Part shown: positions 5,571 to 55,865 of the stretch, piece by piece | How positions within the stretch are numbered: position 1 is the stretch's first letter | Layout of the letters: the number at the start of each line of letters is the position of its first letter | Assembly: GCA_027001995.1 (NCBI GenBank) | Contig: JALTLO010000197.1 | Coordinates: 14,781 to 78,780, forward strand | Reading direction: 5' to 3' | DNA length: 64,000 nucleotides | Source: Planctomycetota bacterium | GTDB lineage: Bacteria > Planctomycetota > GCA-002687715 > DRQF01 | Notes under the pieces: model-generated | What the model saw: the letters and a program-made list of their open reading frames with translations, nothing else | What the model was told of the DNA's origin: nothing | The model's database searches: none | Program-made: the position numbers and the translations under genes

Positions 5571-6653
5571 TCACCCAGGAATCAAGGGTAGCTCAATTCT
5601 TTGAGGCTTTCCATTGCGCCAAAACTTGATTCTTATGGTTTGCCCGACCTGGCATCGGAGTCGGATCCATGCGTGGAAATGATCGGCGTCTCGGAAGTCT
5701 GATTTGCTGTTGATTGATAGGACGATGTCGCCTTTGCGGAGTCCAGCTTTCTTGACATTGGCGCCGAGAGATTTCCTTGGGCCCCAATCGACGATGTAGT
5801 CCACGCGCATAGCAAAAGGATATTCCTCTAAGCCGAGCTCCTTCTTTGTTTCTTGAGAGAGAATCTGGCCGCCGAATCCTGGGGCTGGCGACAATTCCCA
5901 TTTCATCGGGCGCCAAGAATATTCGAAGGGGCTGATTCGCTTCCAACCATCTTTGAGCTTCAGCTTGAACGTCTTCAAGCTGTCGCCCCGAGACCAATGA
6001 GTGGTGAGAGTGGTCCTTGCTTCTTTGGTTTTATGAAGAGCGTGTTGGAAATCAGCGATGCTAAAAACTCTCTTGTTTTCGATGCTGAGTAGTTTGTCGC
6101 CGGGCCTAAGACCAGCCACATGGGCGCTGCTTTTCGGGGTGACAGACATAAGGGTCGTTTGATGGATGGGGTCCATTTCTATGCCAATTTGTCGAGGAGC
6201 TGGGTAGACGAATTTCTTTTCGGGAGTCCAGGTCTTCTTGGCGATGGCTTCCCGTCGTAATGCTGGGAAAATGCTATGACAATGGACACATTCTAATTTC
6301 TTACCACGGACCCCTTTGGCAAAGGCAGGCACGTCAAAAATCGTCGTTCTGGTATTCGGGATGTCTGGTTTCTTCTTGGGGCGAGATTCTGTTTTTTTGT
6401 GGATTCGATGGTTGTCTCTTAGCTCCCTGAGCCATGCTGCAATTGCCCTTGGCTGTTGCCAAAGGTTCGCGCTGGATTTGTCGCGCCCCCCAAAGCGGCT
6501 GACAAGATTGCCGTCGGGGCTGTGAACTGTCATAGCGAAGGTGAGATCGTAGTCGAATTGGAACTTATTGAGGTCAACAGTACTCATGTCGGTGATGCGC
6601 AGACAAACGAAAGATCTGAGGAGTGCTGTCAATGTCTTGTTCGGTCGGAGCAA
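5571..6653 (-). CDS. Periplasmic thioredoxin-fold / CXXCH / double-PDZ protein; listed ORF is the part downstream of two in-frame TGA codons (selenoprotein candidate or pseudogene; see findings)
   Basis: Two PDZ-like segments (AGLRPGDKLLSIENKRV and AGLRKGDIVLSINSK). CVHCH heme-binding-type motif. N-terminal DYDLTFAMTVHSPDGNLVSRFGG is thioredoxin-fold-like. The same frame stays open upstream through TGA 6681..6683 and TGA 6690..6692 to at least 6821. Confidence 0.55.
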   Translation of the reverse strand: MLRPNKTLTALLRSFVCLRITDMSTVDLNKFQFDYDLTFAMTVHSPDGNLVSRFGGRDKSSANLWQQPRAIAAWLRELRDNHRIHKKTESRPKKKPDIPNTRTTIFDVPAFAKGVRGKKLECVHCHSIFPALRREAIAKKTWTPEKKFVYPAPRQIGIEMDPIHQTTLMSVTPKSSAHVAGLRPGDKLLSIENKRVFSIADFQHALHKTKEARTTLTTHWSRGDSLKTFKLKLKDGWKRISPFEYSWRPMKWELSPAPGFGGQILSQETKKELGLEEYPFAMRVDYIVDWGPRKSLGANVKKAGLRKGDIVLSINSKSDFRDADHFHAWIRLRCQVGQTIRIKFWRNGKPQRIELPLIPG

Positions 6654-7359
6654 CTGCTCGTCGGTGGATTTGCAATCCCTTCAGGGTACTCAGCGAAAGA
6701 CTGTGAGCATGGGTTTCTGTTGGGCTTGGGATTTCTCTTCCGCGGCCTGCAAGTTGGACATCCAAGAGAATCTTTGGGCGCAAACGGACATGTTCATGGC
6801 GAACAGGGCGAAACCGACCATAAGAACATGAGAAAGGAGCTTTTTCGGACCTGATTTGAACATGGAGTTTTTTCCTGGGGCTGGGCTTCGTCTCTAAGAA
6901 AGTACCTGGTCATGGGGGAGCCGCAAGGGATTCTTGAGCTGACTTCGTGGCTCTAATTCTTTTTTCGACACTTGGGCCGTCTCTCATTCATGATCTTCCC
7001 CGTCTGCAGAGCGCCCAAGCTCAACGTCCACCGCTGCTCGCTTTTGCCCGATGCTGGTCCAATCACTTTGATCTCATGAAAAAAATGGGCCCTGAGGTTA
7101 TGATTTCCCCATGAAGAAAATCACTGGAATTCTATTGTTGTCATTTTTGGCCCTTCATCCATCTCTCTACGCCCAGTGAAGTGGCTGAACCACAGGAGCG
7201 CCGTCGGTCGGACGGCCTACAAGTATTGAAACAGAAGCGGGTGGTTTTCGCGTTGCCGCTTGGGGAACGTTTGAGCGTCGAGATCGCCTTTATGTCGGCT
7301 CACAACGGACGAATGACCCTTCTGGAGAATCCGTAGAGATTGCCCGGGCGCTGCTGGAA

Positions 7360-13434: not shown

Positions 13435-16248
13435 ATGAGCGAGTCATTCGAAGAAGAAGTCACCCGAATTGCCAAACGCCTTGAAACCATGCCTCAAGAG
13501 GCGATTGAGGCAGAATTGGACACGATTCACCTGGCAGACAGAGAGCTAGCTGCGGCTCTTCGGGTGCGATTGGATGCGACAACGATGGCAATGGGGGCAT
13601 TTCGAGCAGAAAAAACCGCTCATGGCGGACATGCCCCCACCCATTCCGAGAAAATTCGGCGCCAGACTGATGTGCCTTTAGTGGGAATGGAGATTGGGGG
13701 CTGCAAACTCGAAGGATTGATCGCTGAGGGCGGTATGGGGGCCGTATTTGAGGCTACCCAGCAGCCCATGGGGCGAAAAGTGGCTGTTAAGTTGATGAAG
13801 AATGGTTTGGTTTCTCGGGAAGCCCGGCAACGATTCGACTATGAAGCTAAACTTGTGGCCAATTTGGCTCATCCAGGTGTGGCGCAAGTGTTTGGCTCCG
13901 GCGTCTGCGAGTCGGAGAGGGGTGGCGTTGCCGTTCCTTATATAATCATGGAGCTGGTGGCGGATGCCCGGAGCCTTCGGGAGTTTGTGCGGGAAGAGCA
14001 CCTGGGAGTCAACGAAACCTGTGAACTGTTTGTCCAAGTTTGCGAAGCCGTGTTCTTTGCTCATCAACATGGAATCATCCACCGAGACCTGAAACCGGCG
14101 AATATTCTTGTGGGTGCAGATGGCCGACCGCGAGTGATCGATTTTGGCGTGGCCCATGTTGAAGACGATGCCAACTTAACCCGGTCTTTCGAAACGAACC
14201 CGGGCTCTATTGTTGGGACTTTGCCTTACATGAGTCCGGAGCAAGTTGGAGGGGATGAAGTCGTTGATGTTCGCAGTGACGAATATACGTTGGGTGTTAT
14301 TCTCTACGAACTTCTCTGTGGTTTCAGGCCATACAATTTTGACCAAAAGTCTTTACCCCAGGCCATCGAGGTGATTCGCGGGGTGGCACCACAGCGGCCG
14401 TCGAAATCTGTTCCCTCCCTGGCCGGAGACCTCGATACCATCATCCTGAAGTCCATGCGAAAAGATCGCAAGGATCGCTATCAAACGGTGGATGATTTCG
14501 CCGAAGATATTCGGCGATACTTAGGGGGCTTGCCCATAGAAGCACGCCCAACGACGATGGGCTACCAAGTCCGGTTGTTCACAAGGCGAAATCGTTTGCT
14601 CGTTACTTTGTCTCTCATCTTTGTCGTCGGCCTGATCGTCGCAACGGTTTTTTCGGTAAACCAAGCAATTTCGGCTCGGGAGTCAGAAAATAAGGCTGTA
14701 GCTGCGGCTCGCGAAGCGACTCAGAGTCGCGACATGGCCCGTGATTCCGAAAGCAAGGCCAAAGCCGCAGCACTTGAGGCAACGAGGAGCCGGGACCAAG
14801 CTCTTCGGCTTTTGGCCGAAACAAGGAGCTTAGCTGAGTGGTTGGTGATCGACCTTCTCAATGAAGTGGCGGCGCTACCGGGCAGTACGCCACTGGCAGA
14901 AAAACTCGCAATCAAAGTCGCTGATCATCTGGACACCATGGCTCCTGATGCGGCCTTGGACCCAGAGATGCAGCGAACGATCGCTTTGGCTTACATGGAA
15001 ATCGGGTCGGTCATGGGAACGCCGACTCGCCCGAATCTGGGGAAGCGTAAAGAGGCCCTCGTTCACTTGGCAAAGGCGGAATCTCGTTTTCTCAAACGCT
15101 GGGAGGAAGACCCATCTCCTCGACGAACCATCGATCTCTGTGTAGCCCAATCTCTGTCGGCGGAGATCTTGGATTCTATGGGGGATACGGATGAGGCCAG
15201 AAAGATCTATGAGGTTGGCATGGCTCGCTTACTGGCCATAGAACCCCAGGCAGATCTGAAGCTCAAGCGGGATTCTCTTTTGGCAAGTTTCAAACGAGAC
15301 ATGGCGATGGTATGGGCTAAGGAAGGGAAACCTCAGCAAGCCATCGACGCCCTTCGTGACGTTGTCAAGATGAGGTCAGCAGTCATAGCAGCAGGCAAGA
15401 ACGATGGAAGCCAGAAACGTCAGCTCATCATGGACAAGAACACGTTGGCCCAGCTTCTTGGGCTCAACGGGCAAGCCCAGGAAGCTGAAGCTCTGCTGCG
15501 CGCCACCATGCCGGAAGTTTTGGCTTCTGAAAAGGAGGGGAACATCGCCGCGGAAGATGGGGCTGTGATTCGCTTTCAGCTCGCGGATGCGTTGAGCGTT
15601 CAGAAAGGAAAGGAAAAGGAAGCTTTAGATCTCTTCTTGGAGGTTCTCGCAATCCGCCAGGCATTGTCGGTGGGAGACGAAACGAACATCAGCCGGATGG
15701 AGAGCTTGGCTACGGTGTTGGAACGCTGCAGTACAATGACCGCCATCGTCACGGGAGATAATAGCCGTGCATTCGAGTATGTTGATCGCACGGTCGCCAT
15801 AACGCGGCACATGTTAGAAATCTCTCCGGATTCTTTAGATCATGTCAGTCGCTTGCGGATTTCTCTCGGACGCAAAGCGGGTTTGGCTAACATTCTGAAG
15901 CGCAAGGAAATTGCCTTGGCAGCCTCGGAAGAGAGCTTCGCCATGGCGAAGAAACTCTTCAACGAAATGCCTGACTCTCTGGCTAGCCAACGAGCCATGG
16001 CCGAATCATGGACGCTGAAAGGGCACGTGTTCTTGAATAAACCGGGGCAGGCTGACTCCCTTGAGATGACAATTTCTTGTTATGAGCAGGCTCTTGTGGC
16101 CTTTCAGGAAGGCAATAAGTATCTATTGAAACTCAAAAACTTGGACCCGACGCCGTTTTGGGTGGCACGATCCTTCAAGGCACAGCAACTCTATATTTCT
16201 GCGACCAAAGATGGACTCGCCAATTTGAAGAAACTGATCAACAAATGA
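13435..16248 (+). CDS. Ser/Thr protein kinase with TM segment and C-terminal TPR-like repeat domain
   Basis: Hanks kinase motifs: GxGxxG-like, VAVK, HRDLKPANIL, DFG, SPEQ. A TM helix lies around residue 390. Long alpha-helical repeat tail. Confidence 0.85.
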   Translation: MSESFEEEVTRIAKRLETMPQEAIEAELDTIHLADRELAAALRVRLDATTMAMGAFRAEKTAHGGHAPTHSEKIRRQTDVPLVGMEIGGCKLEGLIAEGGMGAVFEATQQPMGRKVAVKLMKNGLVSREARQRFDYEAKLVANLAHPGVAQVFGSGVCESERGGVAVPYIIMELVADARSLREFVREEHLGVNETCELFVQVCEAVFFAHQHGIIHRDLKPANILVGADGRPRVIDFGVAHVEDDANLTRSFETNPGSIVGTLPYMSPEQVGGDEVVDVRSDEYTLGVILYELLCGFRPYNFDQKSLPQAIEVIRGVAPQRPSKSVPSLAGDLDTIILKSMRKDRKDRYQTVDDFAEDIRRYLGGLPIEARPTTMGYQVRLFTRRNRLLVTLSLIFVVGLIVATVFSVNQAISARESENKAVAAAREATQSRDMARDSESKAKAAALEATRSRDQALRLLAETRSLAEWLVIDLLNEVAALPGSTPLAEKLAIKVADHLDTMAPDAALDPEMQRTIALAYMEIGSVMGTPTRPNLGKRKEALVHLAKAESRFLKRWEEDPSPRRTIDLCVAQSLSAEILDSMGDTDEARKIYEVGMARLLAIEPQADLKLKRDSLLASFKRDMAMVWAKEGKPQQAIDALRDVVKMRSAVIAAGKNDGSQKRQLIMDKNTLAQLLGLNGQAQEAEALLRATMPEVLASEKEGNIAAEDGAVIRFQLADALSVQKGKEKEALDLFLEVLAIRQALSVGDETNISRMESLATVLERCSTMTAIVTGDNSRAFEYVDRTVAITRHMLEISPDSLDHVSRLRISLGRKAGLANILKRKEIALAASEESFAMAKKLFNEMPDSLASQRAMAESWTLKGHVFLNKPGQADSLEMTISCYEQALVAFQEGNKYLLKLKNLDPTPFWVARSFKAQQLYISATKDGLANLKKLINK

Positions 16249-37466: not shown

Positions 37467-39611
37467 GTGGATTTCTCAGTGCAGATAGCGAGTAACTCGA
37501 TGACAGTACAGAAACGTCGCTTGCAAGTGATTCTTTTTTGTTCCCTGGCCCTCATGACTCTTGGGCTCACAATCGGTATGCAGACCATCGACCGTGCTCA
37601 GGCTGAGCCTCATTTGGCCACCAAGATTCAACTCTGGGAGCAAGGTGCCAGAGAGATCGATCGCTTGGTCCAAGTCAATCTGAAACAGAATAAACTGTCC
37701 CCCAACAAAATGGCCTCGGATGCCACTTTTCTGCGGCGGGTCTACTTGGATGTCATTGGCCGAATTCCCGATATCAAAGAAACACGGGCTTTTCTCAAGT
37801 CGAAAAATCCGAACAAACGCAAAGAGTTGGTGGTGACCCTGATGAATTCGCCGGGGTACGTGAGTCATAATTTCAATTTCTGGGCTGATATCCTGCGAAT
37901 CAAATCTCGTCCCATCCCACAGATCAGTGGTGAACCTTTCATCCATTGGATCAAGCAATCTTTGCAAGAGAACAAACCCTACGATGTCATGGTTCGAGAA
38001 ATGCTCACCACCAATGGCGCAGCTAACGAGAAGGGCAATGGGGCCACAGGTTTCTTGCTACGGGACCGGGGGATGCCTCTGGACAGCATGGCCAATACGG
38101 TTCGGGTCTTCCTGGGTACGCGCATTGAATGTGCTCAATGTCACAATCACCCCTTTGCCGATTGGACGCAGCGACAGTTTTTTGAAATGGCGGCATTCTT
38201 CGGTGGTTTGCAATATGTCAATGAGATGTTCACTAAGCCCGAAGGACGGAAACTCTTGCGCCAATCCAGAACGATCGGCAAGCAACAAGGAGAATTGGCT
38301 GCCCGCAATCTTCGGCGCCAAGTTCGTCGTGTTCTTCAGCCTGGGATCAACAATAGCGGGACCGGAGTAGCTCGATTGCCCAATGACTACGCTTACGACG
38401 ATGGCAAGCCCAATGACTTCGTTCTTGCAAAGACTCTTTTCGGCAAACCGGCTGCCATCAATCCGAAGGTTCCCAAGATTCCACGCCGATTCGCGGAGCG
38501 CATGAAGAAGGCCAAGAATAAGAAAAGGATGATGAGGCGCTCATTTGCCAAAGATATACGGTCGCGAGATGCCTTCGCGGACTGGTTGACTGATGATGAG
38601 AATCCACTCTTTACCACGGTGATCGTCAACCGCATGTGGGCGAAGTTGATGGGGCATCCCTTGGTGCCAGCTATAGACGATATGCGGGAAGATAGTGTCT
38701 CGGTTAATCCTGATTTATCCGCACACCTAAACAGGTTGATGAAGGACCTGAACTACGACTTGAAGGCCTTTCAAACTGTGATCCTGCTGAGCAAGACCTA
38801 CCAACGAGAATCGGAAACCAGTCTTCCTCAGGCACCAGAACGATTTCGTTTCCCCGGTCCTTTGTCCAGACGGATGAGCGCCGAGCAATTCTGGGATTCC
38901 ATGCTGACTTTGGTCGTTCCCAATATCGATAGCACCATCACCGAACCTATGTCCTTGCGAGCCAAGGCTGTTTACGACAACTACGAGCTATTGAGTGGCA
39001 AGTCCGCTCAAGAGATCATAGCTCAATTCAAAGGGCCGGAAGGTTCGATGATGTCTCAACAAGAGTTGCGCCGTCAGAAACGAATGGAGTTTCGTGAAAA
39101 GCTGCGTCCGTTGAGACGAGCGTTGGTTCAGGCTCGGCGGCGAAAAGACAAACAGGCTGAAGCGGAAGCGCTCGCCAGTCTCAAAGCCCTGGGGATCGAT
39201 GGCGATAATTTCTTGTCCCAGCAGCGCTATGGACGAGAATTACTCCGCGCTTCCGAGCTGCCGTCCCCAACCCCTCCAGGGCACTTCTTGCGAGAATTCG
39301 GCCAGTCCGATCGGGATCAGGCTAACGGTGCATCAACAGCACCCACTGTTCCCCAAGTGCTTAACCTGGTGAACGGTTTTGTTGAGAAGAACCTCTTGGC
39401 GAAGAGGCAAGGCATGATGCTTTCTGCATTGCGCCGCACGCAGAAAACAGATCAGAAAATTCGTTTGGTTTTTCTCTTTGTTTTGAACCGCCAGCCCAGC
39501 AGATCGGAGATCGCATCATGGCGAGGGGACGCGGCAAAAATCGGTGAGCCAGCGATCTTTGATTTGATTTGGACCTTAGTAAATAGCCATGAGTTTAGGC
39601 AGTTGAGCTGA
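37467..39611 (+). CDS. DUF1549/DUF1553 domain protein (planctomycete PSCyt2/PSD1 family)
   Basis: Conserved RIECAQCHNHPFADWTQRQF block (DUF1549) and a C-terminal DUF1553-like region. Signal anchor. Confidence 0.85.
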   Translation: MDFSVQIASNSMTVQKRRLQVILFCSLALMTLGLTIGMQTIDRAQAEPHLATKIQLWEQGAREIDRLVQVNLKQNKLSPNKMASDATFLRRVYLDVIGRIPDIKETRAFLKSKNPNKRKELVVTLMNSPGYVSHNFNFWADILRIKSRPIPQISGEPFIHWIKQSLQENKPYDVMVREMLTTNGAANEKGNGATGFLLRDRGMPLDSMANTVRVFLGTRIECAQCHNHPFADWTQRQFFEMAAFFGGLQYVNEMFTKPEGRKLLRQSRTIGKQQGELAARNLRRQVRRVLQPGINNSGTGVARLPNDYAYDDGKPNDFVLAKTLFGKPAAINPKVPKIPRRFAERMKKAKNKKRMMRRSFAKDIRSRDAFADWLTDDENPLFTTVIVNRMWAKLMGHPLVPAIDDMREDSVSVNPDLSAHLNRLMKDLNYDLKAFQTVILLSKTYQRESETSLPQAPERFRFPGPLSRRMSAEQFWDSMLTLVVPNIDSTITEPMSLRAKAVYDNYELLSGKSAQEIIAQFKGPEGSMMSQQELRRQKRMEFREKLRPLRRALVQARRRKDKQAEAEALASLKALGIDGDNFLSQQRYGRELLRASELPSPTPPGHFLREFGQSDRDQANGASTAPTVPQVLNLVNGFVEKNLLAKRQGMMLSALRRTQKTDQKIRLVFLFVLNRQPSRSEIASWRGDAAKIGEPAIFDLIWTLVNSHEFRQLS

Positions 39612-39624
39612 GAGGATTGCAGCC

Positions 39625-40938
39625 ATGAATATCAACGACGTTAAGAGTGAATCTGATCCTCGTAGCCGCCGAGACTTCTTAGGGGGGGCCGCAAGGGGAC
39701 TTTTGGGCGTTAGTCTTTTGCCTTCCTTGGGAGGCATGGGAGGGCTCTTTTCCAACTTAGAGGAGAAGAAGGTTGTTTTGGGCCCGGCGACGGCCAAGAA
39801 CGTTATTTACCTCTTCATGAGTGGGGGCATGTCTCACTTGGACACCTTTGATCTGAAGCCCGGATCTCCTTCTCAGGGACCGACGAAGTCGATCGCCAGT
39901 AATGTTGATGGCATCCTGCTTTCAGAGCACATGCCTTCCTTGGCTAAGCAGATGGATAAAGTAGCGGTCATTAACTCCATGTTCTCGAATCAAGGGGCAC
40001 ATGTGACCGGGCGTTACTTGATGCACACCAGCTACGTTGCACGGGGTACGATCAAGCATCCTAGCATGGGGGCTTGGTTGGGGCATATGGCTGGGCGGAC
40101 AAACAAAACCCTTCCTGGACATGTCACGATTGGTCCCGATAGCACTCTCGCTACCAACGGTTTCTTGTCTTCAGAATATGCGCCTTTACCAATTGGTGAT
40201 CCGTCGACTGGGCTGGCCAATGGTAAGCGGCATAAGAACGTGGACGCAGCAACATTGGAACGGCGTCTCACACGACTGCAACGAATGAATGAAGCATTCA
40301 ACCGCAAGCATAAATCGCGCAGTACGCAAGATTACGAAAAGATCTATCAAGAGGCCGTTAAGCTGATGAGTTCGAAAGACCTAGCGGCCTTTGATATCAG
40401 CCAAGAGGACGAACTGATTCGCAATGCCTATGGTTCAGATTCCTTTGCCCAAGGTTGCTTGCTGGCTCGGCGTTTGGTGGAGCACGATGTGCGCTACGTT
40501 GAAGTCGTTATGGGTGGATGGGATACTCACAACGAAAACTTTGATGCCATGGAGACGCAAGTGCCGAAGTTGGATCGGGCACTCGCCTGCCTTTTGGCCG
40601 ACTTAGAGATTCGCGGTTTGCTCGAAGAAACCCTGGTGGTTTTGGCCACTGAATTCGGTCGGTCACCAGAAATCAACCCAGACCGCAATGGCCGCGACCA
40701 TCATCCAAAGGCCTTTAGCTGCTTGCTTGCAGGGGGCGGCATCAAGGGTGGCGTTAAATGGGGGCAAACGGATGAGTTCGGGGCCCAAGTGGTGGAGAAC
40801 CAGGTTCACGTTCAAGACTTGAATGCCACGATTGCCCATGCCTTGGGTCTTCCTTTAGACCACCGCGTGTTCTCGCCTTCGGGTCGCCCTTTCCAAGTGG
40901 CGGACAAGGGAAAACCCGTCTTGCAGTTGTTTGCCTAA
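39625..40938 (+). CDS. DUF1501 domain protein (sulfatase-like) with Tat signal
   Basis: RRDFLGGAARGLLGVSLL twin-arginine signal. A DUF1501 pattern all along. The usual partner of DUF1549/DUF1553. Confidence 0.85.
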   Translation: MNINDVKSESDPRSRRDFLGGAARGLLGVSLLPSLGGMGGLFSNLEEKKVVLGPATAKNVIYLFMSGGMSHLDTFDLKPGSPSQGPTKSIASNVDGILLSEHMPSLAKQMDKVAVINSMFSNQGAHVTGRYLMHTSYVARGTIKHPSMGAWLGHMAGRTNKTLPGHVTIGPDSTLATNGFLSSEYAPLPIGDPSTGLANGKRHKNVDAATLERRLTRLQRMNEAFNRKHKSRSTQDYEKIYQEAVKLMSSKDLAAFDISQEDELIRNAYGSDSFAQGCLLARRLVEHDVRYVEVVMGGWDTHNENFDAMETQVPKLDRALACLLADLEIRGLLEETLVVLATEFGRSPEINPDRNGRDHHPKAFSCLLAGGGIKGGVKWGQTDEFGAQVVENQVHVQDLNATIAHALGLPLDHRVFSPSGRPFQVADKGKPVLQLFA

Positions 40939-41974
40939 AATGAGAAATGCAATGAAACGAAACAAACGATCATCGTTACTACTGGCAGTTGTGGCCCTCA
41001 TGTTGGGGACGGTCGGGCTGAATGCCCAGACCCCAGACTTCGAAAAAGACGTTCTGCCGATTCTGAAGAAACGTTGCTTTGAATGTCATGGGGCCCCCAG
41101 GAAAGACAAGCGTGGGCGGATGAAGTTCGCCAAGGCTGGCCTTCGCTTGGACGGCAAGGATCATATTATTGCTGGGTCTGTGATTGTTCCCAGGTCACCT
41201 CAGACGAGCATGTTAGTTGAGTACATCTCCCTACCCGCCGGTGATCCTGATATCATGCCTCCCAAGGGATCTCCTCTTACGGCCAAGGAAGTACAGACGA
41301 TCTACAGCTGGGTCAATGATGGCGCTTCCTATGGTTCTTGGGTGGGTGCGTCTCGCACCCAAGTGAAGAATACGACAGCGAAAAAAGTGTCGCCTGTTTC
41401 CAAGAGTATTCAAGTACTCAAACAACTGGGAGCCAACTTAAGCCCCTTGCAAGAATCGACCATGGCGGGGATTTTGCCAGGCTTGGCTCAAGTGGAGGCG
41501 GTCTATCCGGGTAGCGGCCTTTTGCGCGTGTCCTTTGCCCGTACGTCAAAGGTGGTTGATGATGATGTCCTGCGGAAGCTAGCAGCCTTTGCTCCTCGGA
41601 TTGCTCGTTTGAACTTGTCAGGAACGAAAGTGACAGACAAGGGATTGTTGTATCTGACGAAGATGAAACGTTTGGTTCATTTGGATCTCCATAAGACAGG
41701 GGTTACAGACGCTGGCTTGGCATATCTCAAGGGGCTGAAGGAGTTACGCTCTCTGAACCTCTATGGCACCCAAGTGACGGATCAGGGTTTGCCGCAGATC
41801 TCGATGCTGAAGAGACTCAACTCTCTCTATCTGTGGCGCAGTCAAGTCACCGCCGCTGGAGCTAAGCGTCTACGGCAGGTTCTGCCCGCGGCCAAAATTA
41901 GCTTTGAGTTGGTTCTCCCAGATCCGGCTCCCCCAGAGGAAACCCCCCGGCGTCGACGCAGAGGGAAGAAGTAA
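40931..41974 (+). CDS. PSCyt1-like cytochrome-c-type domain + leucine-rich-repeat protein
   Basis: An N-terminal FEKDVLPILKKRCFECHG motif. Then repeated L..L.L..T.VTD.GL units. Confidence 0.6.
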   Translation: MPKMRNAMKRNKRSSLLLAVVALMLGTVGLNAQTPDFEKDVLPILKKRCFECHGAPRKDKRGRMKFAKAGLRLDGKDHIIAGSVIVPRSPQTSMLVEYISLPAGDPDIMPPKGSPLTAKEVQTIYSWVNDGASYGSWVGASRTQVKNTTAKKVSPVSKSIQVLKQLGANLSPLQESTMAGILPGLAQVEAVYPGSGLLRVSFARTSKVVDDDVLRKLAAFAPRIARLNLSGTKVTDKGLLYLTKMKRLVHLDLHKTGVTDAGLAYLKGLKELRSLNLYGTQVTDQGLPQISMLKRLNSLYLWRSQVTAAGAKRLRQVLPAAKISFELVLPDPAPPEETPRRRRRGKK

Positions 41975-47689: not shown

Positions 47690-50407
47690 TTAGCGCTCCT
47701 CAATTATTTCCAATCGCACAGGACAAACCTTGAGTTCTGCAGTTTGGGTGATGGGATCGTAGCCGGAGCCCGTAAGGATATTGACGGGTGTTTCGTTAAA
47801 CGAGAATGAGCAGAAGACAGTCCCACGGGGTGAGCGCTTGTTGGCCTCCACCACGATCTCAACCGAGCCCCGAGCAGACGTCATGCGACAGAGCTTCCCA
47901 TCGGTAAGGCCCCATTTTTCGACGTCGTCAGGATGAATTTCTAAGGTCTCTTGGGGCAGTAAATAGTCGATGCCAAAGGAACGTCCCGTCTGGGTACGGG
48001 AATGATAAGACTCAAGTCTTCGTCCAGTGGTGAGCCATACGGGATAGGATTCGCTGATCACTTCTGCCGGGTCACGCAGATTGACAATCTTGAGTTTGCC
48101 CTTACCGCTGGGGAATTCATCGATATGCAGAATCGGCGTCCCTGTGTGTTCCTTATTGGGAACGGGCCATTGATATTCCCCTTGATCAATGCGATCCCAA
48201 TCCAAGCCAGCATAAATAGGGGAGAGTGAGCAGAGCTCATTGAAGACATCTTTGGCAGATTCATAGTCGAAACCCGAGAAACCAAGACGTTTCCCAAGCT
48301 CCGAGATGATCCACCAGTCAGGTTTCGCATCTCCTGGAGGTGGCACGGCCGCCCGAAGGCGCTGAACGCGACGCTCGGTGTTGGTACACACACCATCGGT
48401 CTCTCCCCAACTTGATGCTGGCAAGACCACATCGGCTAGGACGGCGGTCTCTGTCATGAAAAGATCGATGACGACCAAGTGGTCCAATGACTTGAGAGCA
48501 TGTTCGCAGTGGTCGCGGTCGGGATCCGTCACCACGGTGTTCTCGCCACCGATGATCATGGCTCTGATTCGGTCGCCACACTGATCTAATGCGGTGACTT
48601 TCGTGATGCCTCGTTCTAAGGACACAGGGGTGCCCCAAGCGGCTTCGAACTTGGCCTGGTTCTTGGGATCATCCACAGGTTGAAAACCAGGATAGTTGTT
48701 TGGAAGAGCTCCAACATCTCCAGCACCTTGAATATTGTTTTGGCCCCGCATGGGGTTGATGCCCGTTCCTTCTTTGCCGATATGCCCAGTGAGAAGGGCA
48801 AGATTGCTCAAGCTTTGGACGTTGTCAACACCACAAATGTGCTCGGTGATTCCCAAGGTGTAGTAGATGGCGGCCTTCTCAGCTTCACCGTACCAATGGG
48901 CGGCCTTCTCGATATCTTCCGCCGGCACTTGGCAAATGGCCGAAGCCCAACTGGGTGTGAATTCTTTGAGGTGCTGTCTGAGCTCCTGAATCCCTTCCGT
49001 TCTTTCGGCGACAAATTCTTCGTTGACTAAGCCGTCACGGTCGATGACATGGGCCATCGCTAAGAGTAGGGCAACATCGGTTCCGACTTTTAGCGGCAAG
49101 TAGAGATCGGCGATTTCGGCTAATTGAATTTTTCTCGGGTCGGCCACGATGAGGCGGCCGCCATTGGCCAGCCCACGCTTGATGCGAGTCGCCGCCACTG
49201 GATGGCATTCCGTCATGTTGGTGCCGATGCAAAAATAGACGTCGGGCTTTTCCATGTCTTCCAATGGGTTTGACATGGCTCCTCGTCCGATGGTAGCCGC
49301 CAGACCGGCGACAGTTGGAGCATGTCAGGCACGGCTGCAATTATCGATTTGATTGAGTCCCCAACCCGCTCTCATCAATTTTTGCAGGGCGTAAGAAGCT
49401 TCATGGGGGGCGCGGCCGGAGGCGATGGCATAGATGGCCTCGTTGCCATGATCGCGGGAGACCTTTTCGAAACCTTTGGCCGCTACGTCGATGGCTTCTG
49501 TCCAACTGACTGGTTCGAGTTTGCCATTCTTGCGGACGAGGGGAGTTGTGAGCCGATCATCGTGTTGAACAAAGTCGTATGCGAATTGCCCTTTGACGCA
49601 AAGAGCGCCCAAGTTGGCTGGTCCATCCATGGCCGGTTGGATGCCGACAATCTTGTCTTCTTTGGACATAATGTCGACGGAACAACCCACGCCGCAGTAG
49701 GTGCAAATGGTTCGTGTTTTCTTAATGTCGCCAACAGTCTTCCGGTCTCGAAGTGCCTTCTTGTCAGCCAAAGCACCGGTGGGACAGGTCTGGACGCATT
49801 GCCCACAGAAGGTACATTCTGATTCTCTGAGGTCACTGTTGAACTCGGTTGTGATCTGAGTGGCGAACCCTCGGTTCATCACATTGATGGCGTAGTCCCC
49901 TTCACGTTCTGCGCAGACGCGAACACAGCGGTAACAAGAGATGCACTGGTCGTAGTCTCGCAAAATGAAGGGATTGAGGTCTTCCGTTCGACTGGTTCCA
50001 GACTTGGCTCCAGCGAATCGCCCGGTGATCGCGTCATAGCGGTTGGCGAGTTGTGTGAGTTCCTGAGAAGCGAAACCGGAGAGCTCGGGGGTTTCAACTT
50101 GACGATTCTCAGAAACAACCAGCTCCAAGAGTGTCTTACGATCCTTCTCTAATTTGGCGGTGTGGGTATGCACAACCATACCCGGGCTGGCTTTTGTTGT
50201 GCAAGAGGCCACAGGGTTGCGAAATCCTTCGACTTCGACCATACACATGCGGCAACCTCCGAATGCGTCCAGTCGCTTGTCGTAGCAAAGTGTTGGCACT
50301 TCTTTCTTGTGGCGCTCGCTGATTTCGAAGAGAGATTCCCCATGGGAGAATGCGACGACTTCGCCATCGAGAGTCAGTTCATAAGTGTTCTTGGTCTTAT
50401 CAATCAT
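47690..50407 (-). CDS. fdhA: Selenocysteine-containing formate dehydrogenase alpha subunit (NuoG-like N-terminal Fe-S domain + molybdopterin domain); in-frame UGA (Sec) at 49327..49325
   Basis: Track ORFs 49325..50407 and 47690..49276 are in the same frame and are separated only by the TGA. The read-through gives ...IDNCSRA-U-HAPTVAGLAATIG..., which matches the FDH active-site SR(V/A)(C/U)H(G/A)P(S/T)VA motif. The N-terminal part has 2Fe-2S/4Fe-4S cysteine clusters. Confidence 0.8.
49294..49313 (-). promoter_or_regulatory. SECIS-like hairpin 11 nt downstream of the fdhA UGA (stem UGUCGCC/GGCGGCUA, loop GGUCU)
   Basis: mRNA reads UGA-CAUGCUCCAAC-UGUCGCC-GGUCU-GGCGGCUA. The spacing and the GGUC loop closely parallel the E. 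coli fdhF SECIS, which encodes the same VAGL peptide. Confidence 0.6.
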
Positions 50408-52080
50408 GAGTTTGCTTTCTTGATGGTTGAGGCCAAGTCGTCTGGGAACAGGCGTAATAGGCTTTCAGTGATAAGGGGAGCTGCCATCCCCAAGCCACAA
50501 GCGGAGGATGACTTCATCACTTGCCCCATATCTTCAACTTCTTCTCGCCAAGCGGCAAATGTATCAGGGCCTGCGCTGCCAGCTAATCGTTCGGTCAATC
50601 TTTGGGTCCCGATGCGGCAAGGGAAACACTTGCCGCAAGATTCATGGGCAAAGAACGCCATGGCCTGTCGTCCCAAATCGACCATGTCTCGTGTTTCGTC
50701 GAATATCATGATGCCCCCAGCACCTAAGAAGGAGCCCTTGGCTCGAACGCTCGGTTCGTCCAGGGTAACCGCGTAGGCATCTTCCGCCCCCAAGAACCCT
50801 CCCGACAGTCCCGCCATGGTGACTGCCTGAAGTTTCTTGCCCCCTGGGATGCCGCCGGCCCATTCTTCGATCAAAGTCTTCAGCGGTAGTCCTAAGGGCA
50901 CTTCGTAGTTTCCAGGCTTTTCAATGTCACCGGACAGACTGATGAGCTTCGTCCCTTTGTGATCTCCAAGTCCCAAGGCCGCATAGCGTGCAGCACCATT
51001 CATGACGATCCATGGGACGCTGGCCAATGTTTCAACATTGTTAACGGCAGTGGGCAGATCATTGAAGCCATGAGTCACCGGATATGGGGGACGATTGCGG
51101 GGGAAGGGGTGTTTTCCTTCTAAACTATTGAGCAAGGAAGTCTCTTCACCGCAAATGTAGGCACCAGCACCTCGGCGCAGGTGGATTTGGAATTCGTAGC
51201 CTGACCCCAGAATGTCTTTTCCTAAAAGGCCAGCGTCGCGAGCTTCCTGAAGAGCCTGCCCTAGTGTTTTCAATGTTTCTGGGTATTCGTAGCGTAAGTA
51301 AATGAAACCTTCGCTGGCCCCACAGCAAAAAGCGGCGAGGATCATACCCTCAATAACGAGGTGGGGGTCGTGGTCTAAAAGGGTGCGGTCCTTAAAACAT
51401 CCGGGTTCTCCCTCGTCAGCGTTGCAGACCACATACTTAGGAGACCCCTGGGCATCGGCAACGGCCTGCCACTTTTCTCCCGTAGGAAAACCTGCTCCCC
51501 CTCGGCCAGCCAAACCACTGGCCTTCACTTCTGCCAGAGTTCTCTCTCGCCCCAGATCGTTGAGGGCTTTTTCTGCTGCCAAATACCCCCCACTTGCCTG
51601 GTAACCAGCCAGTGATTTTCTGTCCGGATCGCGAATCTCGGCGAAAACACATTCTTCCAGACCACCAGGATTTGGGATGGGGCGTGGTGTTTCCGGGGTG
51701 GGAACGATGGCATCGGGAGCAATCTGGTAGGTGCGATTGCCTCGAAGTGCTGGGATTGGCACATCGCAGCGTCCACTGCAAGGCATCGATCTTGCCCCAT
51801 CACCTTGCATGGCCTTCAAGATTTCTTGAGATCCTTTGAGGCTACAAATCGGACCTGTGCAGATGCGCAAATCATCGTGGCTCCCGCTTTCCATACTCAG
51901 ATGGTCGTAGAAAGTCACGGTCCCGAATAGCTCCGCTTTTGGGATGCGGAGTGCCTTGGCTATGGCCAAGATGGCCTCTTCCGTAATCTTCAAGTCGCGT
52001 TCGTGAAATGCGTGCAACATACCCAACAAAGGAGCTGGTTGGGTCCGCCACTCTTCAATGATCTTCTCAGTGGATTCCAT
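50404..52080 (-). CDS. NAD(H)-binding formate dehydrogenase beta subunit (fused NuoE-like 2Fe-2S + NuoF-like FMN/NADH/4Fe-4S)
   Basis: The N-terminus has the NuoE cysteine pattern (C..C...C...C). NuoF motifs GGAGFPTG and ESCGKCFPCR. Overlaps the fdhA start by 4 nt. Confidence 0.8.
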   Translation of the reverse strand: MESTEKIIEEWRTQPAPLLGMLHAFHERDLKITEEAILAIAKALRIPKAELFGTVTFYDHLSMESGSHDDLRICTGPICSLKGSQEILKAMQGDGARSMPCSGRCDVPIPALRGNRTYQIAPDAIVPTPETPRPIPNPGGLEECVFAEIRDPDRKSLAGYQASGGYLAAEKALNDLGRERTLAEVKASGLAGRGGAGFPTGEKWQAVADAQGSPKYVVCNADEGEPGCFKDRTLLDHDPHLVIEGMILAAFCCGASEGFIYLRYEYPETLKTLGQALQEARDAGLLGKDILGSGYEFQIHLRRGAGAYICGEETSLLNSLEGKHPFPRNRPPYPVTHGFNDLPTAVNNVETLASVPWIVMNGAARYAALGLGDHKGTKLISLSGDIEKPGNYEVPLGLPLKTLIEEWAGGIPGGKKLQAVTMAGLSGGFLGAEDAYAVTLDEPSVRAKGSFLGAGGIMIFDETRDMVDLGRQAMAFFAHESCGKCFPCRIGTQRLTERLAGSAGPDTFAAWREEVEDMGQVMKSSSACGLGMAAPLITESLLRLFPDDLASTIKKANS

Positions 52081-52099: not shown

Positions 52100-52879
52100 T
52101 TAGTAGTCGAGGCCCAACTTCTTGAGCTTGGGAGTGATAGTGTAGCGGCAATAGGGATTCGCGTTTTTCTTCCGTCGGTAGTAGTCCTGGTGTTCTGCCT
52201 TTGCCTTCCAGAAGTGGCTGGCCTCGGTGATCTCCGTTACGATGGGGTCTGCGAATGCCCCAGACTTTCCTACTTTCATCTTGGAGTCTTCAGCGATTTC
52301 TCTCTGCTCAGGGCTGTGATAGAAAATCACTGAGCGATATTGAGTCCCTACGTCGTTGCCTTGACGGTTGAGAGTTGTAGGGTCGTGGAGTTTCCAGAAC
52401 CATCCCAGGAGCTCACGGTATTTGATCTTGCTTGGATCGAAGTGCACTTGGACCACTTCCGCATGACCGGTGGTGCCCCGGCAAATGTCCTCGTAGCTTG
52501 GATCGTTCAGGTGCCCACCCATGAATCCGGATTCAATCTTGGTGACACCTTCTACTTGTTGCAAAACAGCTTCGATGCACCAATAGCATCCGGCACCAAG
52601 TGTGGCGATTTCGTCGTGGGAAGTTTGTGGACTCATTTTCTTGGTTTCCTTGGGCCGAGGATTGTTGTTGGTGGCAGTGTCTTCTGGCTTGGAGCCGCAA
52701 GCAAAGAGAAAGCAACTAACGAAGGTGAGGGTGACAACGAATATTCTGAACATAACATTCCTTACTGGGCGCGATGACTTGAAGCCTATGATAGCTGATA
52801 CACCCAAGATCGCCATATTGTTGCATGTTCGATGAGGATGGGAGGCGGTTTTTTTGACCGCAGAGGTTTCAGCCCTCAA
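52100..52879 (-). CDS. msrA: Peptide methionine sulfoxide reductase A (secreted/lipid-anchored)
   Basis: GAGCYWC active-site motif and the conserved C-terminal region. N-terminal hydrophobic/lipoprotein-like leader. The true start may be the internal Met near 52751. Confidence 0.85.
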
Positions 52880-55865
52880 GTGCTGCTAATGTCTGCCAGA
52901 AATTGAGCCAGCGTTGTCGCTCCTCAGAGGGCAAAAATACTGGGAAATTTGGCCCATGGCATTCGGTCAAACGGGGGTCGGCGAGCCAAAGGCTTCGCTC
53001 TCTTTGAATGACAAATGGGGTTGATCCGCTTAAGCCAGCTTCATTGGCATCCAAAAATCGAGAAGCGGCAGAAAGGGCTCGTTCCCAGAGTTTGGCCTGC
53101 ATGTCTGAATTGATGTTCTCTTGTCGTGCCAACCATAGAAGACTTGCTAACGCATCTCTTTCGATTCCTCTGGGTTGAGGCCCAAGGGTGCCACGGGGGG
53201 GAAGGCTGCCTTGACGTCCTGGGCCACGGCGTCGTCCCCGGGCAATGGCATCCAGCCAAGCGTTGCTCGCTTCGTTGGCCAGTTTGTTCCAGGTGAGAGT
53301 GCGGGCTCGGTCAATGGAGCCCCGCAGGGAAGGGGTGTCAAGAGGTCGGCCCATTTTCCTGAGAACTTGCAAATCTTGAATTCTTTTCCTGAGGCGGCTG
53401 AGCCTGATGGATTTCTTGTGGCCATCAATAACCTTCAAGGCGCCTTCTAAATTGCCTTGATCTGCTAAGGCTCTGGCCCATGTTGCCGGGAGTCCTTCAT
53501 GGAGTCCCCCTAAGTCGATTCCAGCTTTTGCCGCTTTGATGGAAGCTGCGAAATCCCCAGCCGCCAAGTTCGCCATGGCCAACCGTGGCCACAACTCGTC
53601 GTGTTCCGGATGAATCCGAGCTGCAGTTCGCAAGAACTCCAATTCGGTTTTTGCCGAAACCTGAAAGTAAATGTCGCTCAGGGTACGGTCTAAATTTTCT
53701 CTCTTGACGCGGTTCCCTCCGTACATCACTTCCACGGCGTTCTTGGTTTCCCCCGATCGCAAAAGAGCAATGACCAAGTGCTTTCTGGCGAAAACGCTTC
53801 CAGGTTGGAGTGAAAGGGCAATCCAGGCGTGTCTCGTCGCCATATCGATGTCCGCTTGTGATCGTTGATCGGCAAGGGGAACACCCAATGGGCGATTGCG
53901 GCTGGCTAACATGGCGATGTGGTGGTTGATCCAAAAGTCATCCGGGTGGGCCACGAAACCTAACCACAAAACATGGAGAGCTTCTTGACGTTCGTTTTCC
54001 CGAACCAAGCTGATGGCCAAAAGGAGGATGCTTTGGGTGTTTCGTTTCTCTAAACCTTTCTCCCTGGCCAATTCCAAGAGAGCTTTTCGATCGTTCTCCA
54101 AAGCCACAGAGCGCAGGCGACGGCGCCAAGGATCTGTGTCCAAGAGTTGGCTGGTGCTGACGAGCTTGGACCAGAGTGATTCAGGCCCTTGGGCTTTCAT
54201 GTTTCTCGTCGAGGCGGATCGCCCTCCGGCTTGCCGTTCTCGGGCGGCCCAGTCGTCTAAAGCTGCCAATATTTTTCTTCGCAAATAGGGCGGTTGGGGG
54301 TCAAGTCTTCGAAAAGCAGATTCTGGGGAGTGCTTTTCCATGTCGATCCCGAATGTGGTGAATGCGGCGGCGTACTCCTTGCGGCCAACATTCGGGTCGT
54401 CAATGGGTAACTGACGGATGTGGTCGATTTCCTTGGCGAAAGTTTCCTGAGCCAGGGATGCCTTTTCTTTGGCTAACGCCGCCTTCTTGTGGGAGGACAA
54501 TTGCTCGCGGGTGAGGGCAAGCTTGGTATGGAGGTCTTTCGGTCCATTGTCTCGCAGCAGAATAAGATCGGCCCGCCTGAGTGCTTCTTCCATGGCATCC
54601 CAGGATTTCTCCTGTGATCTCAAGTTCGCCGTTCGGAGAGCCCCTTCAAAATTCGTTCGCATTTCGATGAGGTCTTCGTTGCGGGCAGTGATCCAATTCC
54701 ACCATAAACCACCGCTCACCAGCAGAACCAAGATGACCAAGGCACCCAAAGCCATTGTGAGTCGCCTTGCTTTGCGCTCTTCGATGAGTTTGTGGTGGGC
54801 GGCTTGGGTTTCTATTTTCGCCCCTTGGAGGTCTTCTTCTAATTTGTCGATATAGCTGGCAACCACATCAGCGACGATAAAAGCGTTTCTTGGGCGCGAT
54901 GCAACCACCGGCTCCAAACACCAAATGGACAGTTCTTTGATTTCCCTTGGCCCGTCAGCCGCGGAAATCCGTGTCACGGCGTCTTTCATATCCCCTTTGG
55001 CCGCAATTGTCGCTGCATGTACGCCACTCTCTGGGAGGTGAGGTGGGGCTCCCGTGAGTATTTCGCAGAGGATGCCCCCTAAGGCGAAGACATCGCAGCG
55101 TTCGTCGATTTCATCGATTTCGCCCCGGGCTTGCTCCGGGGACATGTAGCCAGGAGTGCCCAAGACGGAACCACTCATGGATTCAGAGCTTCCACTGCTG
55201 CTGCGGATGGTCCTCAGTGAATTCTGGTTTCTTGGTTGTTTGTTGGGTGTGCTCTGATTCGGGTTCTTGATGAGCTTGGCAAAGCCCCAGTCCAAGACCT
55301 GCACTTCGCCGAATGCTCCGATCATGATGTTTGATGGTTTGAGGTCGCGATGAATGACACCACGGGCGTGAGCGAAGGAGATTGTCTGACACAAAGAACT
55401 GAATATTTGGATCAGATGGCCAAGATTCTCTTCGACGGTTCTTCGTCTTTTCAAAACATCGGTGAGGGTTTCGCCCTTGACCAGCTTCATGACAAAGAAA
55501 GGGCGGTCCCGTTCGTCTAAACCAGTTTCATAAATGGGCACGATGCCTGGGTGCTGGAGTTGGCCGGCAATCTGGGCTTCTTCAAGAAAACGAGCCATGG
55601 CCGAGTTTTCGTCGATCCGGTCGCGACGGATAACCTTGATGGCGACGTCTCTTTCTAAGCGATCATCTCGGGCGCGATAGACAATGCCCATACCACCTCG
55701 GGCAATCTCGTCCAGCAAACGAAATCGACCGCACCAACCGTTGTGCTCCGTCTCTTCTTCCTCATCGTCGTTTTGGGAAAAGACTTCCCCCAATCCCAAG
55801 TCCCAGACAGATTCCACGTCTTCTTCTTCGAAGGCTGACTCGTCTTTGTCTTCTTCGTGACTCAT
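52869..55865 (-). CDS. Ser/Thr protein kinase with TM segment and TPR-like C-terminal domain
   Basis: [31 protein letters not shown] and SPEQ kinase motifs. The start abuts the stop of the ECF sigma gene. Confidence 0.85.

Follow-up and report, generated by a model that had tools for sequence, protein, structure and literature searches.

Two in-frame UGA codons and a candidate two-hairpin selenocysteine insertion signal in a Trx7/PDZ (seleno)protein gene of a Planctomycetota bacterium

Introduction

Insertion of selenocysteine (Sec, U) in bacteria needs a selenocysteine insertion sequence (SECIS) at a tightly constrained distance downstream of the UGA codon, and how two UGA codons 6 nucleotides (nt) apart are both served is therefore an open question, raised in 2026 for the UXXU hydrogenases (PMC13582414). 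Here, we analyse a gene located on the minus strand, at 5571..6863, of a stretch of 64,000 nt from a Planctomycetota bacterium (contig JALTLO010000197.1, positions 14,781 to 78,780; hereafter, the window). The gene codes for a Trx7/PDZ domain-containing (seleno)protein, and two TGA codons, separated by two sense codons, interrupt its frame within the thioredoxin-like domain. On the basis of sequence comparisons, we consider it highly probable that the product is a secreted protein in which both UGAs are read as Sec via SelB and tRNA-Sec, with a hairpin in the coding region (hairpin B) acting as the SECIS.

The family was first found in 2008, as two GOS reads with the motif CxxU, under the name 'putative secreted serine protease MucD' (PMC2398784). 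The published forms share with the window protein a signal peptide, a Thioredoxin_7 domain, a CxHCH motif and two PDZ domains, and have the same Sec site, which is the redox motif's second position, and the SECIS hairpin at the same position. However, they are CxxU proteins with one Sec, whereas the window gene and 41 of 80 species-level relatives are UxxU and carry an extra hairpin between the second UGA and the SECIS. In the literature searched, no two-UGA bacterial SECIS was found, nor a UxxU form for the Trx7/PDZ family; the reviews and the 2008 paper that catalogue it give CxxU, and one Sec where the residues are counted. The two-Sec form and the two-hairpin signal appear to be undescribed in catalogues of the family, NCBI's own annotation lying outside that comparison.

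UxxU motifs are listed for other bacterial families, namely the Prx-like proteins, the NF041115 metal-binding protein, FmdB and the Group 4 [NiFeSe] hydrogenases (PMC13582414); the reviews also list a bacterial 'Prx-like thiol:disulfide oxidoreductase UxxC/UxxU'. In the Group 4 hydrogenases, as in the present family, the tree shows a mixture of CXXC, CXXU and UXXU forms, a distance of 6 nt separates the two UGAs, and there is one conserved SECIS with a loop G; in contrast to the present family, the motif is the Ni ligand set, and the CXXU and UXXU genes have the same SECIS architecture, with no extra element (PMC13582414). In the UxxU genes described here, a second hairpin is present that is specific to this type. 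SelL and the Prx-like UxxU selenoproteins share with the window protein a thioredoxin-superfamily fold and two Sec residues two residues apart, between which a diselenide is chemically possible, but they belong to the Prx-like fold subfamily, whereas the window protein is Thioredoxin_7/DUF255-like. SelL, reportedly described by Shchedrina and co-workers in 2007, is said to be a two-Sec selenoprotein with a eukaryotic SECIS in the 3'-untranslated region.

Results

A single frame runs on the minus strand from an ATG at 6863..6861 to a TGA stop at 5573..5571, and the only internal stop codons are the TGAs at 6692..6690 (UGA1) and 6683..6681 (UGA2). The translation around them reads MFKSGPKKLLSHVLMVGFALFAMNMSVCAQ RFSWMSNLQAAEEKSQAQQKPMLTVFR-U-VP-U-RDCKSTDEQLLRP..., with the segment before the first TGA ending in KPMLTVFR. 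The gene has the following features:

5571..6863, minus strand: complete coding sequence (CDS) of the Trx7/PDZ (seleno)protein, 430 codons and a stop, one frame broken only by two in-frame TGAs
6774..6863, minus strand: start ATG (6863..6861) and predicted Sec-type signal peptide MFKSGPKKLLSHVLMVGFALFAMNMSVCAQ, read from the sequence
6690..6692, minus strand: UGA1, residue 58, an extra family-specific Cys/Sec site three residues ahead of the catalytic position
6681..6683, minus strand: UGA2, residue 61, where the thioredoxin-fold CxxC has its N-terminal, nucleophilic Cys
6672..6674, minus strand: UGC (Cys64), second and resolving Cys of the canonical CxxC, with a codon that forms the loop of hairpin A
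6666..6678, minus strand: hairpin A, GGAUU-GCA-AAUCC, 5 bp, 11 nt past UGA1 and just past UGA2, which folds in the window
6644..6662, minus strand: hairpin B, at the SECIS position of the family, with only the core well paired (GAGC, 6659..6656; loop AGUU, 6655..6652; GCUC, 6651..6648)
6534..6764, minus strand: Thioredoxin_7 domain, residues 34-110 (Pfam PF13899, 36.3 bits against a cut-off of 27)
6276..6290, minus strand: C-V-H-C-H motif, residues 192-196, conserved in the family
5955..6188, minus strand: PDZ domain 1, residues 226-303 (PF13180 and PF17820)
5583..5846, minus strand: PDZ domain 2, about residues 340-427, with approximate borders (Pfam and NCBIfam matches at 356-427)

The N-terminal segment is predicted to be a signal peptide from its basic n-region, hydrophobic core and VCA-Q end. 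An earlier reading of this DNA (hereafter, the original prediction) had placed the ATG at 6862..6860, out of frame by way of the homopolymer at 6841..6844, and had counted this as a third lesion. With the ATG in its actual place, 6863..6861, the whole gene is in one phase, and there is no frameshift. The open reading frame (ORF) with the signal peptide (MFKSGPKK...TVFR; 6690..6863, 57 aa) is in phase with the PDZ ORF (5571..6653), the distance from 6863 to 6653 being 210 nt, or 70 codons. Both TGAs, within a segment of 1380 nt, are found again in two further public assemblies (ENA, Logan), which are identical base for base over that segment, and an assembly artefact is therefore not the explanation. 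A frameshift or assembly error at the A-run was rejected because of this identity and of the single phase throughout, and the two TGAs upstream of the PDZ ORF are real, as originally reported.

Domain and profile searches of the window protein were run with U written as C. The protein matches the NCBIfam model NF041199, 'Trx7/PDZ domain-containing (seleno)protein', with 364.1 bits against a curated cut-off of 300 (E 7.9e-109), and the match is of full length, residues 33-426 covering positions 2-389 of the 390 of this equivalog profile. The window gene is a member of this known family, and the family itself is not new. For its redox motif (Cys/Sec, published as CxxU) the window has TGA at the second position, and at the first position besides. 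The Thioredoxin_7 and PDZ matches in Pfam agree with the thioredoxin-fold and PDZ protein first proposed, as does the CXXCH motif, which is C-V-H-C-H and (nearly) invariant in the family. PF13180, PF17820 and PF00595 each match two stretches of the protein, and a second PDZ-like beta/alpha unit is present in the AlphaFold2 (AF2) model of a Cys homologue (P0062; pLDDT 93.6). The possibility that the protein is an HtrA/DegP 'MucD' serine protease was rejected, as it has no trypsin-like protease domain. TIGR02037 gives 48.9 bits against a cut-off of 416, and this model and those for DegP/DegQ match the PDZ region alone (17-49 bits against cut-offs of 408-756). What is shared with HtrA/DegP/DegQ and RseP is the C-terminal half, with bacterial periplasmic-type PDZ domains in tandem, and a Foldseek search of the P0062 model against the PDB gave matches limited to the PDZ tandems of DegP, DegQ and RseP, with no structural analogue of the whole chain. 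The old 'serine protease MucD' label reflects a resemblance of the PDZ part only.

The two TGAs were compared across 81 genes, that is, the window gene and 80 species-representative loci from GTDB genomes, mostly Planctomycetota metagenome-assembled genomes with some from Verrucomicrobiota, Armatimonadota and Poribacteria. With the codons read in register, the second position is TGA in 81/81 genes; the first is TGA in 42 (window included) and TGC or TGT (TGY) in 39, and neither TAA nor TAG occurs at either position in any of the 81 genes. The Cys three residues past the second position is encoded by TGY in 79 of the 81. An alignment of orthologues had been suggested along with the original prediction; it returns Cys or TGA at the two positions, and the view that their placement goes beyond chance is upheld by the 41 other species-level genomes with TGA at both. 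Across the 80 loci there is conservation of the peptide ahead of the TGAs, W..L..A...KP[LM]LxVFR, which shares the phase of the ORF that follows.

The roughly 58 nearest relatives in the database (33-51% identity) are all called as ORFs of 329-375 aa without a Trx domain, whereas the more distant relatives among the matches listed (27-32% identity) are mostly of full length, and those read out carry FRCVPCxxC. Both window UGAs align with Cys residues of these full-length FRCVPCxxC homologues. Truncated near relatives set against full-length Cys-containing distant ones are the classic selenoprotein signature. In a neighbour-joining tree of the downstream protein the UxxU and CxxU genes are intermixed, with about nine switches by parsimony, and the UxxU state was thus gained or lost many times; it is a widespread and conserved form, not a product of decay. 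The nucleotides that follow the UGAs were read from A2, an ungapped 63-column nucleotide alignment of the 81 genes. A U after UGA provides the strongest RF2 termination context, and it is found directly after UGA1 in 0/42 genes and directly after UGA2 in 0/81 (columns 10 and 19, corresponding to window positions 6689 and 6680). G follows UGA1 in 38 of the 42 genes, usually within a GAG or GAA Glu codon.

A pseudogene was rejected on the intact frame, the conservation and the retention in the window protein of every residue that is invariant in the family. The window protein is 51% identical to that of its nearest relative, and yet there is no other stop or frameshift in 430 codons. Because of the codon pattern, the upstream peptide and the invariant residues, random nonsense mutation and pseudogene formation are excluded for the family and very unlikely for the window copy. 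In the public gene calls, the Sec-containing members appear as an N-truncated 'hypothetical protein' or 'serine protease Do' together with a separate ORF of about 57 aa (L081:1160-1333, P0001-P0058). The mis-annotation is database-wide, as all of the approximately 58 nearest relatives returned are N-truncated calls, and the family record would be corrected in that about half of the sampled Sec-containing species representatives would have two Sec residues rather than one.

A second gene in the window has a Sec codon:

49325..49327, minus strand: Sec codon TGA of fdhA (CDS 47690..50407), in the context NCSRA-U-HAPTVAGL

This gene codes for the alpha subunit of an NAD-type formate dehydrogenase with the molybdopterin domains present, and ORF finders split it into ORFs of 360 and 528 aa. 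Its SECIS is a 6-bp hairpin, GUCGCC-GGUCU-GGCGGC, which begins 12 nt past the UGA. Since the window also has a Sec-type fdhA with its own SECIS, as had been noted originally, the organism decodes UGA as Sec. Of the two options first offered for the Trx7/PDZ gene, the selenoprotein was retained, on the alternation of Cys and Sec, the use of TGA only, the SECIS and fdhA, and the pseudogene was dropped.

Hairpin B occupies columns 37-43/49-55 of A2, in the segment coding for F-D-G-Q-V-V-R-P, and 91.7% of its cells are paired. It covaries (pair 41-51, GC46/AU21/CG9; pair 42-50, GU34/AU16/CG13/GC13), and in its 5-nt loop G45 is invariant and A44 nearly invariant. Its stability, about -11 kcal/mol, is equal in the CxxU and UxxU genes, and in both types it is much more stable than when its peptide is recoded with synonymous codons (mean z -2.7 to -2.9). 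No such hairpin is found in register in four CxxC-form genes (-1.2 to -4.7 kcal/mol). We take hairpin B to be the SECIS because it is found in all Sec forms, covaries, has an invariant loop G and is absent from the four Cys forms. A search of Rfam returned nothing relevant in the whole window at the gathering threshold, or in 6500-6800 at E<=10. The loop begins 25 nt past UGA2 and 34 nt past UGA1, and the stem 18 nt and 27 nt past them. The consensus bacterial SECIS has a loop of 3-9 nt, a stem of at least 4 bp, a G as the first or second nucleotide of the loop, with G or U next, a distance of 16-37 nt from the UGA to the loop and an MFE (minimum free energy) no higher than -7.5 kcal/mol (PMC13188914). 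As 25 and 34 nt both fall within 16-37 nt, a single hairpin B is formally in range of both UGAs. In the window, hairpin B has the loop AGUU(G), with G second, a 4-bp core stem and the consensus spacing. The fdhF and fdnG genes of Escherichia coli and fdhA of the window likewise have a UGA followed by a hairpin in the coding region, with G[G/U] opening the apical loop. Unlike in those genes, hairpin B has no continuous lower stem and lies 18 and 27 nt from UGA2 and UGA1, respectively, and two UGAs share the region.

In most UxxU genes, a hairpin of 5-7 bp is found directly past UGA2 and 9-11 nt past UGA1 (consensus AAGGACU-GCA-AGUCCUU, columns 19-35), with the Cys64 codon as its loop; in the window this is the hairpin at 6678..6666 that the original prediction had pointed to. 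The local folding energy at this site averages -5.9 kcal/mol in the UxxU genes and -1.4 kcal/mol in the CxxU genes (Mann-Whitney p = 1.5e-12). Relative to synonymous-codon shuffles, the UxxU genes show -5.5 observed against -2.2 expected (mean z -2.08), as compared to a mean z of -0.07 for the CxxU genes, and the MFE structure contains a hairpin of at least 4 bp at this site in addition to hairpin B in 40/42 UxxU but only 16/39 CxxU genes. The difference was replicated with 25 new metagenome sequences, chosen at <92% nt identity to the first set (UxxU, -5.7 kcal/mol, n=14; CxxU, -1.3 kcal/mol, n=11; p = 7e-5). In every contrast between sister groups of the tree, the structure of the UxxU member is the more stable one, with registers and sequences that differ between distant clades; when the UxxU genes alone are aligned, pairing in the fixed-register helix is 77.6%. 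The comparisons with shuffled codons argue that hairpin A is selected at the RNA level in the UxxU genes only, and its link to UxxU is strong but not absolute. The stem of hairpin A begins 9-11 nt past UGA1, a distance similar to that in fdhF and in the window fdhA (11-12 nt).

Among thioredoxin-like proteins of solved structure, the profile of the N-terminal domain matches 3fk8, a disulphide isomerase (E 1.1e-6), 3ira, which is of the DUF255 type, and AGR2/AGR3. The canonical WCxxC of 3fk8 and 3ira (CxxS in AGR2/3) aligns with UGA2 and Cys64, and UGA1 aligns with a non-Cys residue; in the P0062 model, a helix begins right after the equivalent of U61, which is where a Trx fold would have its nucleophilic Cys. 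The motif would be read as [U/C]58-x-x-U61-x-x-C64, with U61 and C64 as the canonical pair, as judged from the profile alignment and the model. The two Sec codons of U58-V-P-U61, two residues apart within the Thioredoxin_7 domain, are then not the canonical active-site pair, because the canonical CxxC aligns with U61 and C64. The original prediction had put the TGAs on both cysteines of the WCxxC; by the profile alignment, the canonical pair is instead the second TGA and what it had called the further Cys. Its diselenide-type reading, in which the two Sec residues replace the canonical CxxC, does not hold in that form, as the fold alignment leaves room for a U58-U61 diselenide but does not imply one. 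Two Sec residues on the canonical CxxC, as in SelL-type proteins, are likewise not what is found here, the first U being at an extra upstream position. U61 is a candidate for the catalytic selenol and nucleophile with C64 as its resolving partner, and U58 would be an additional, family-specific redox or ligand partner three residues upstream. Two UxxU members (L046:2746-2808 and L052:4118-4180) have no resolving Cys (AGT Ser and GCG Ala, respectively) and keep both TGAs. In these, U58 would have to partner U61, which would be natural support for a functional U-x-x-U pair. A full-length family member in alignment A4 (...KKPLFVVFRCVPTRVNAAFDEAV...) has CVPT and neither a second nor a third Cys, and looks like a redox-dead or differently functioning variant.

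In the C-V-H-C-H segment, three residues (C192, C195 and H196) do not vary, and H194 varies little or not at all (alignments A1 and A3). No cytochrome family was matched in the window protein in Pfam at E<=1. The segment may bind haem c or a metal, and the near-invariant extra His suggests a metal equally well. The whole protein is probably a secreted selenol-based oxidoreductase, with the PDZ tandem recruiting protein substrates.

Discussion

An E. coli fdhF-type SECIS sits about 12 nt from the UGA, about where the ribosomal mRNA channel ends. In the reading that we favour, with Sec at both positions, hairpin B would be a SelB-binding SECIS that serves both UGA1 and UGA2. Hairpin A, which begins about 12 nt from the U of UGA1, would be at the mRNA entrance of the ribosome when UGA1 is in the A site; if folded at that stage, it would remove 17 nt of spacer, and the SelB-loaded hairpin B, one nucleotide past hairpin A, would be brought near the mRNA entrance for UGA1. 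Three codons later hairpin A would be unwound, and hairpin B would serve UGA2 over an 18-nt single-stranded spacer, as in every CxxU gene. Hairpin A, which lies between UGA2 and hairpin B, would have been gained repeatedly by the genes with UxxU. That hairpin A is a dedicated cis-element for the upstream UGA, either a second SECIS or a fold-away spacer, and evolved repeatedly with UxxU (about nine switches) is a proposal that we regard as evenly balanced. As to its role, we tentatively prefer the fold-away spacer. A somewhat less likely role for hairpin A is that of a second site for SelB, loaded in advance for UGA1: its loop-initial G and the 16-nt spacing fit such a site, but the loop is GCN and not G[G/U]N, and hairpin A is usually weaker than -7.5 kcal/mol. 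The remaining probability goes to another role or to none. The concern, voiced originally, that two UGAs 6 nt apart are awkward for a bacterial SECIS was legitimate, and is answered in part by a hairpin B within range of both and by the UxxU-specific hairpin. If hairpin A is such a dedicated cis-element, in either role, it would give bacteria their first natural 'two-UGA SECIS architecture' on record, with matched CxxU and UxxU variants as ready-made controls. The family is a natural experiment, in that dozens of species have CxxU or UxxU with the same SECIS, and the second UGA comes with an extra hairpin that appears to be selected at the RNA level.

Several observations weigh against Sec at both positions, or against hairpin A as part of the signal. 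The genes selA, selB and selD and a tRNA-Sec were not found in the 64-kb window. The covariation of hairpin A is modest, its GCN loop does not have the G[G/U] signature common to hairpin B and the SECIS of fdhA, and a few CxxU genes (L077, L003) also fold at its site. Moreover, the genomes with UxxU hydrogenases have been linked to tRNA-ReC, which is able to place Cys at a SECIS-dependent UGA (PMC13582414), and, given this tRNA, one of the two UGA positions of the present family might by analogy not be Sec. Decoding would then be mixed, with Sec at UGA2 and, at UGA1, either Cys from a SelB-delivered tRNA of the SelC*/tRNA-ReC type or Trp or Cys from a near-cognate tRNA, to give C(or W)xxUxxC with one selenium. 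We regard this as unlikely, although it has points in its favour: the first position swaps freely between TGY and TGA among close relatives, which would be easy if the product were the same; tRNA-ReC is enriched in the genomes with UxxU hydrogenases, for which the possibility was raised (PMC13582414); and the published family entry gives one Sec. However, a hairpin that is specific to UxxU and selected in the RNA implies that decoding at UGA1 has a real cost and a solution, rather than neutral drift, and TGA1 is kept across several phyla. In addition, ARAGORN found no tRNA gene of any kind in the 64-kb window.

The window copy itself gives grounds for caution. Its hairpin B, GAGC-AGUU-GCUC (4 bp) with a bulge, is the weakest of the 81 at -4.9 kcal/mol; this fails the threshold of -7.5 kcal/mol, which nearly all relatives pass, and is close to the best value among the Cys forms, -4.7 kcal/mol. 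Hairpins A and B together reach -8.1 kcal/mol, against a family median of about -11, and the UGA region folds no more stably than its shuffled versions (z +1.8 over 96 nt, -0.4 over 42 nt). By folding of the single sequence alone the case for a SECIS in this copy would fail, and it is the comparative analysis that carries it. The same figures would be expected if the UxxU form were real in the family but the copy in the window were decaying or poorly expressed, with an eroded SECIS and translation ending mostly at residue 58, and the nearest relative, L001, has the second weakest hairpin among those in the consensus register (-6.6 kcal/mol). Nevertheless, L001 has the same bulged hairpin in the same shifted register, which looks specific to the clade rather than eroded. 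The loop of hairpin B retains A44, G45 and U, and the core stem remains; structures A and B still beat synonymous recodings (z -1.8 and -1.9); and neither the unbroken 430-codon frame, at 51% identity to the nearest relative, nor the full set of family-invariant residues is suggestive of decay. We consider a decaying copy quite improbable and, the gene being otherwise intact and conserved, read hairpin B of the window as a weak, clade-specific SECIS variant. Its weakness lowers our confidence in an efficient read-through of this copy. A further alternative takes the gene callers at their word: the real product would be a PDZ protein of 338-360 aa starting past the TGAs, and the upstream 57-codon ORF would be separate or meaningless. 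Public annotations show exactly such truncated ORFs, with the separate 57-aa ORF, but Sec is beyond what gene callers can call; a product of this kind would begin in the middle of a thioredoxin fold and have no signal peptide, 80 loci show conservation of the frame ahead of the TGAs, with its peptide motif, in phase with the ORF that follows, and full-length Cys forms exist. We give this alternative hardly any credence, and favour insertion of Sec at both UGAs.

Other genes in the window

No shared neighbour gene was found for the Trx7/PDZ family in an all-against-all BLAST of the ORFs across the 81 loci. The only clusters that recur are ORFs of about 110 aa on the opposite strand of the Trx7/PDZ gene, in 54 and 30 loci (L002-L080); they overlap the gene and are found in GC-rich genomes. 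These are most likely spurious shadows of the conservation of the Trx7/PDZ gene.

Elsewhere in the window, the gene for a NuoF-like subunit (50404..52080) adjoins fdhA. A trio of genes typical of Planctomycetota is found at 37467..41974 on the plus strand, consisting of PSCyt2/PSD1 (DUF1549/DUF1553), DUF1501 and PSCyt1 'Planctomycete cytochrome C' with LRR, and supports the assignment of the window to this phylum. On the minus strand, 60116..62542 is a single ORF of 808 aa with a ferrochelatase domain (residues 3-311) and a complete MFS transporter (380-763), an unusual fusion which, judging from its domains, might couple haem synthesis to transport. Three large Ser/Thr kinase ORFs are present in the 64 kb (13435..16248, plus strand; 52869..55865, minus strand; 57185..60055, plus strand), each with weaker or stronger TPR-type matches past the kinase domain.

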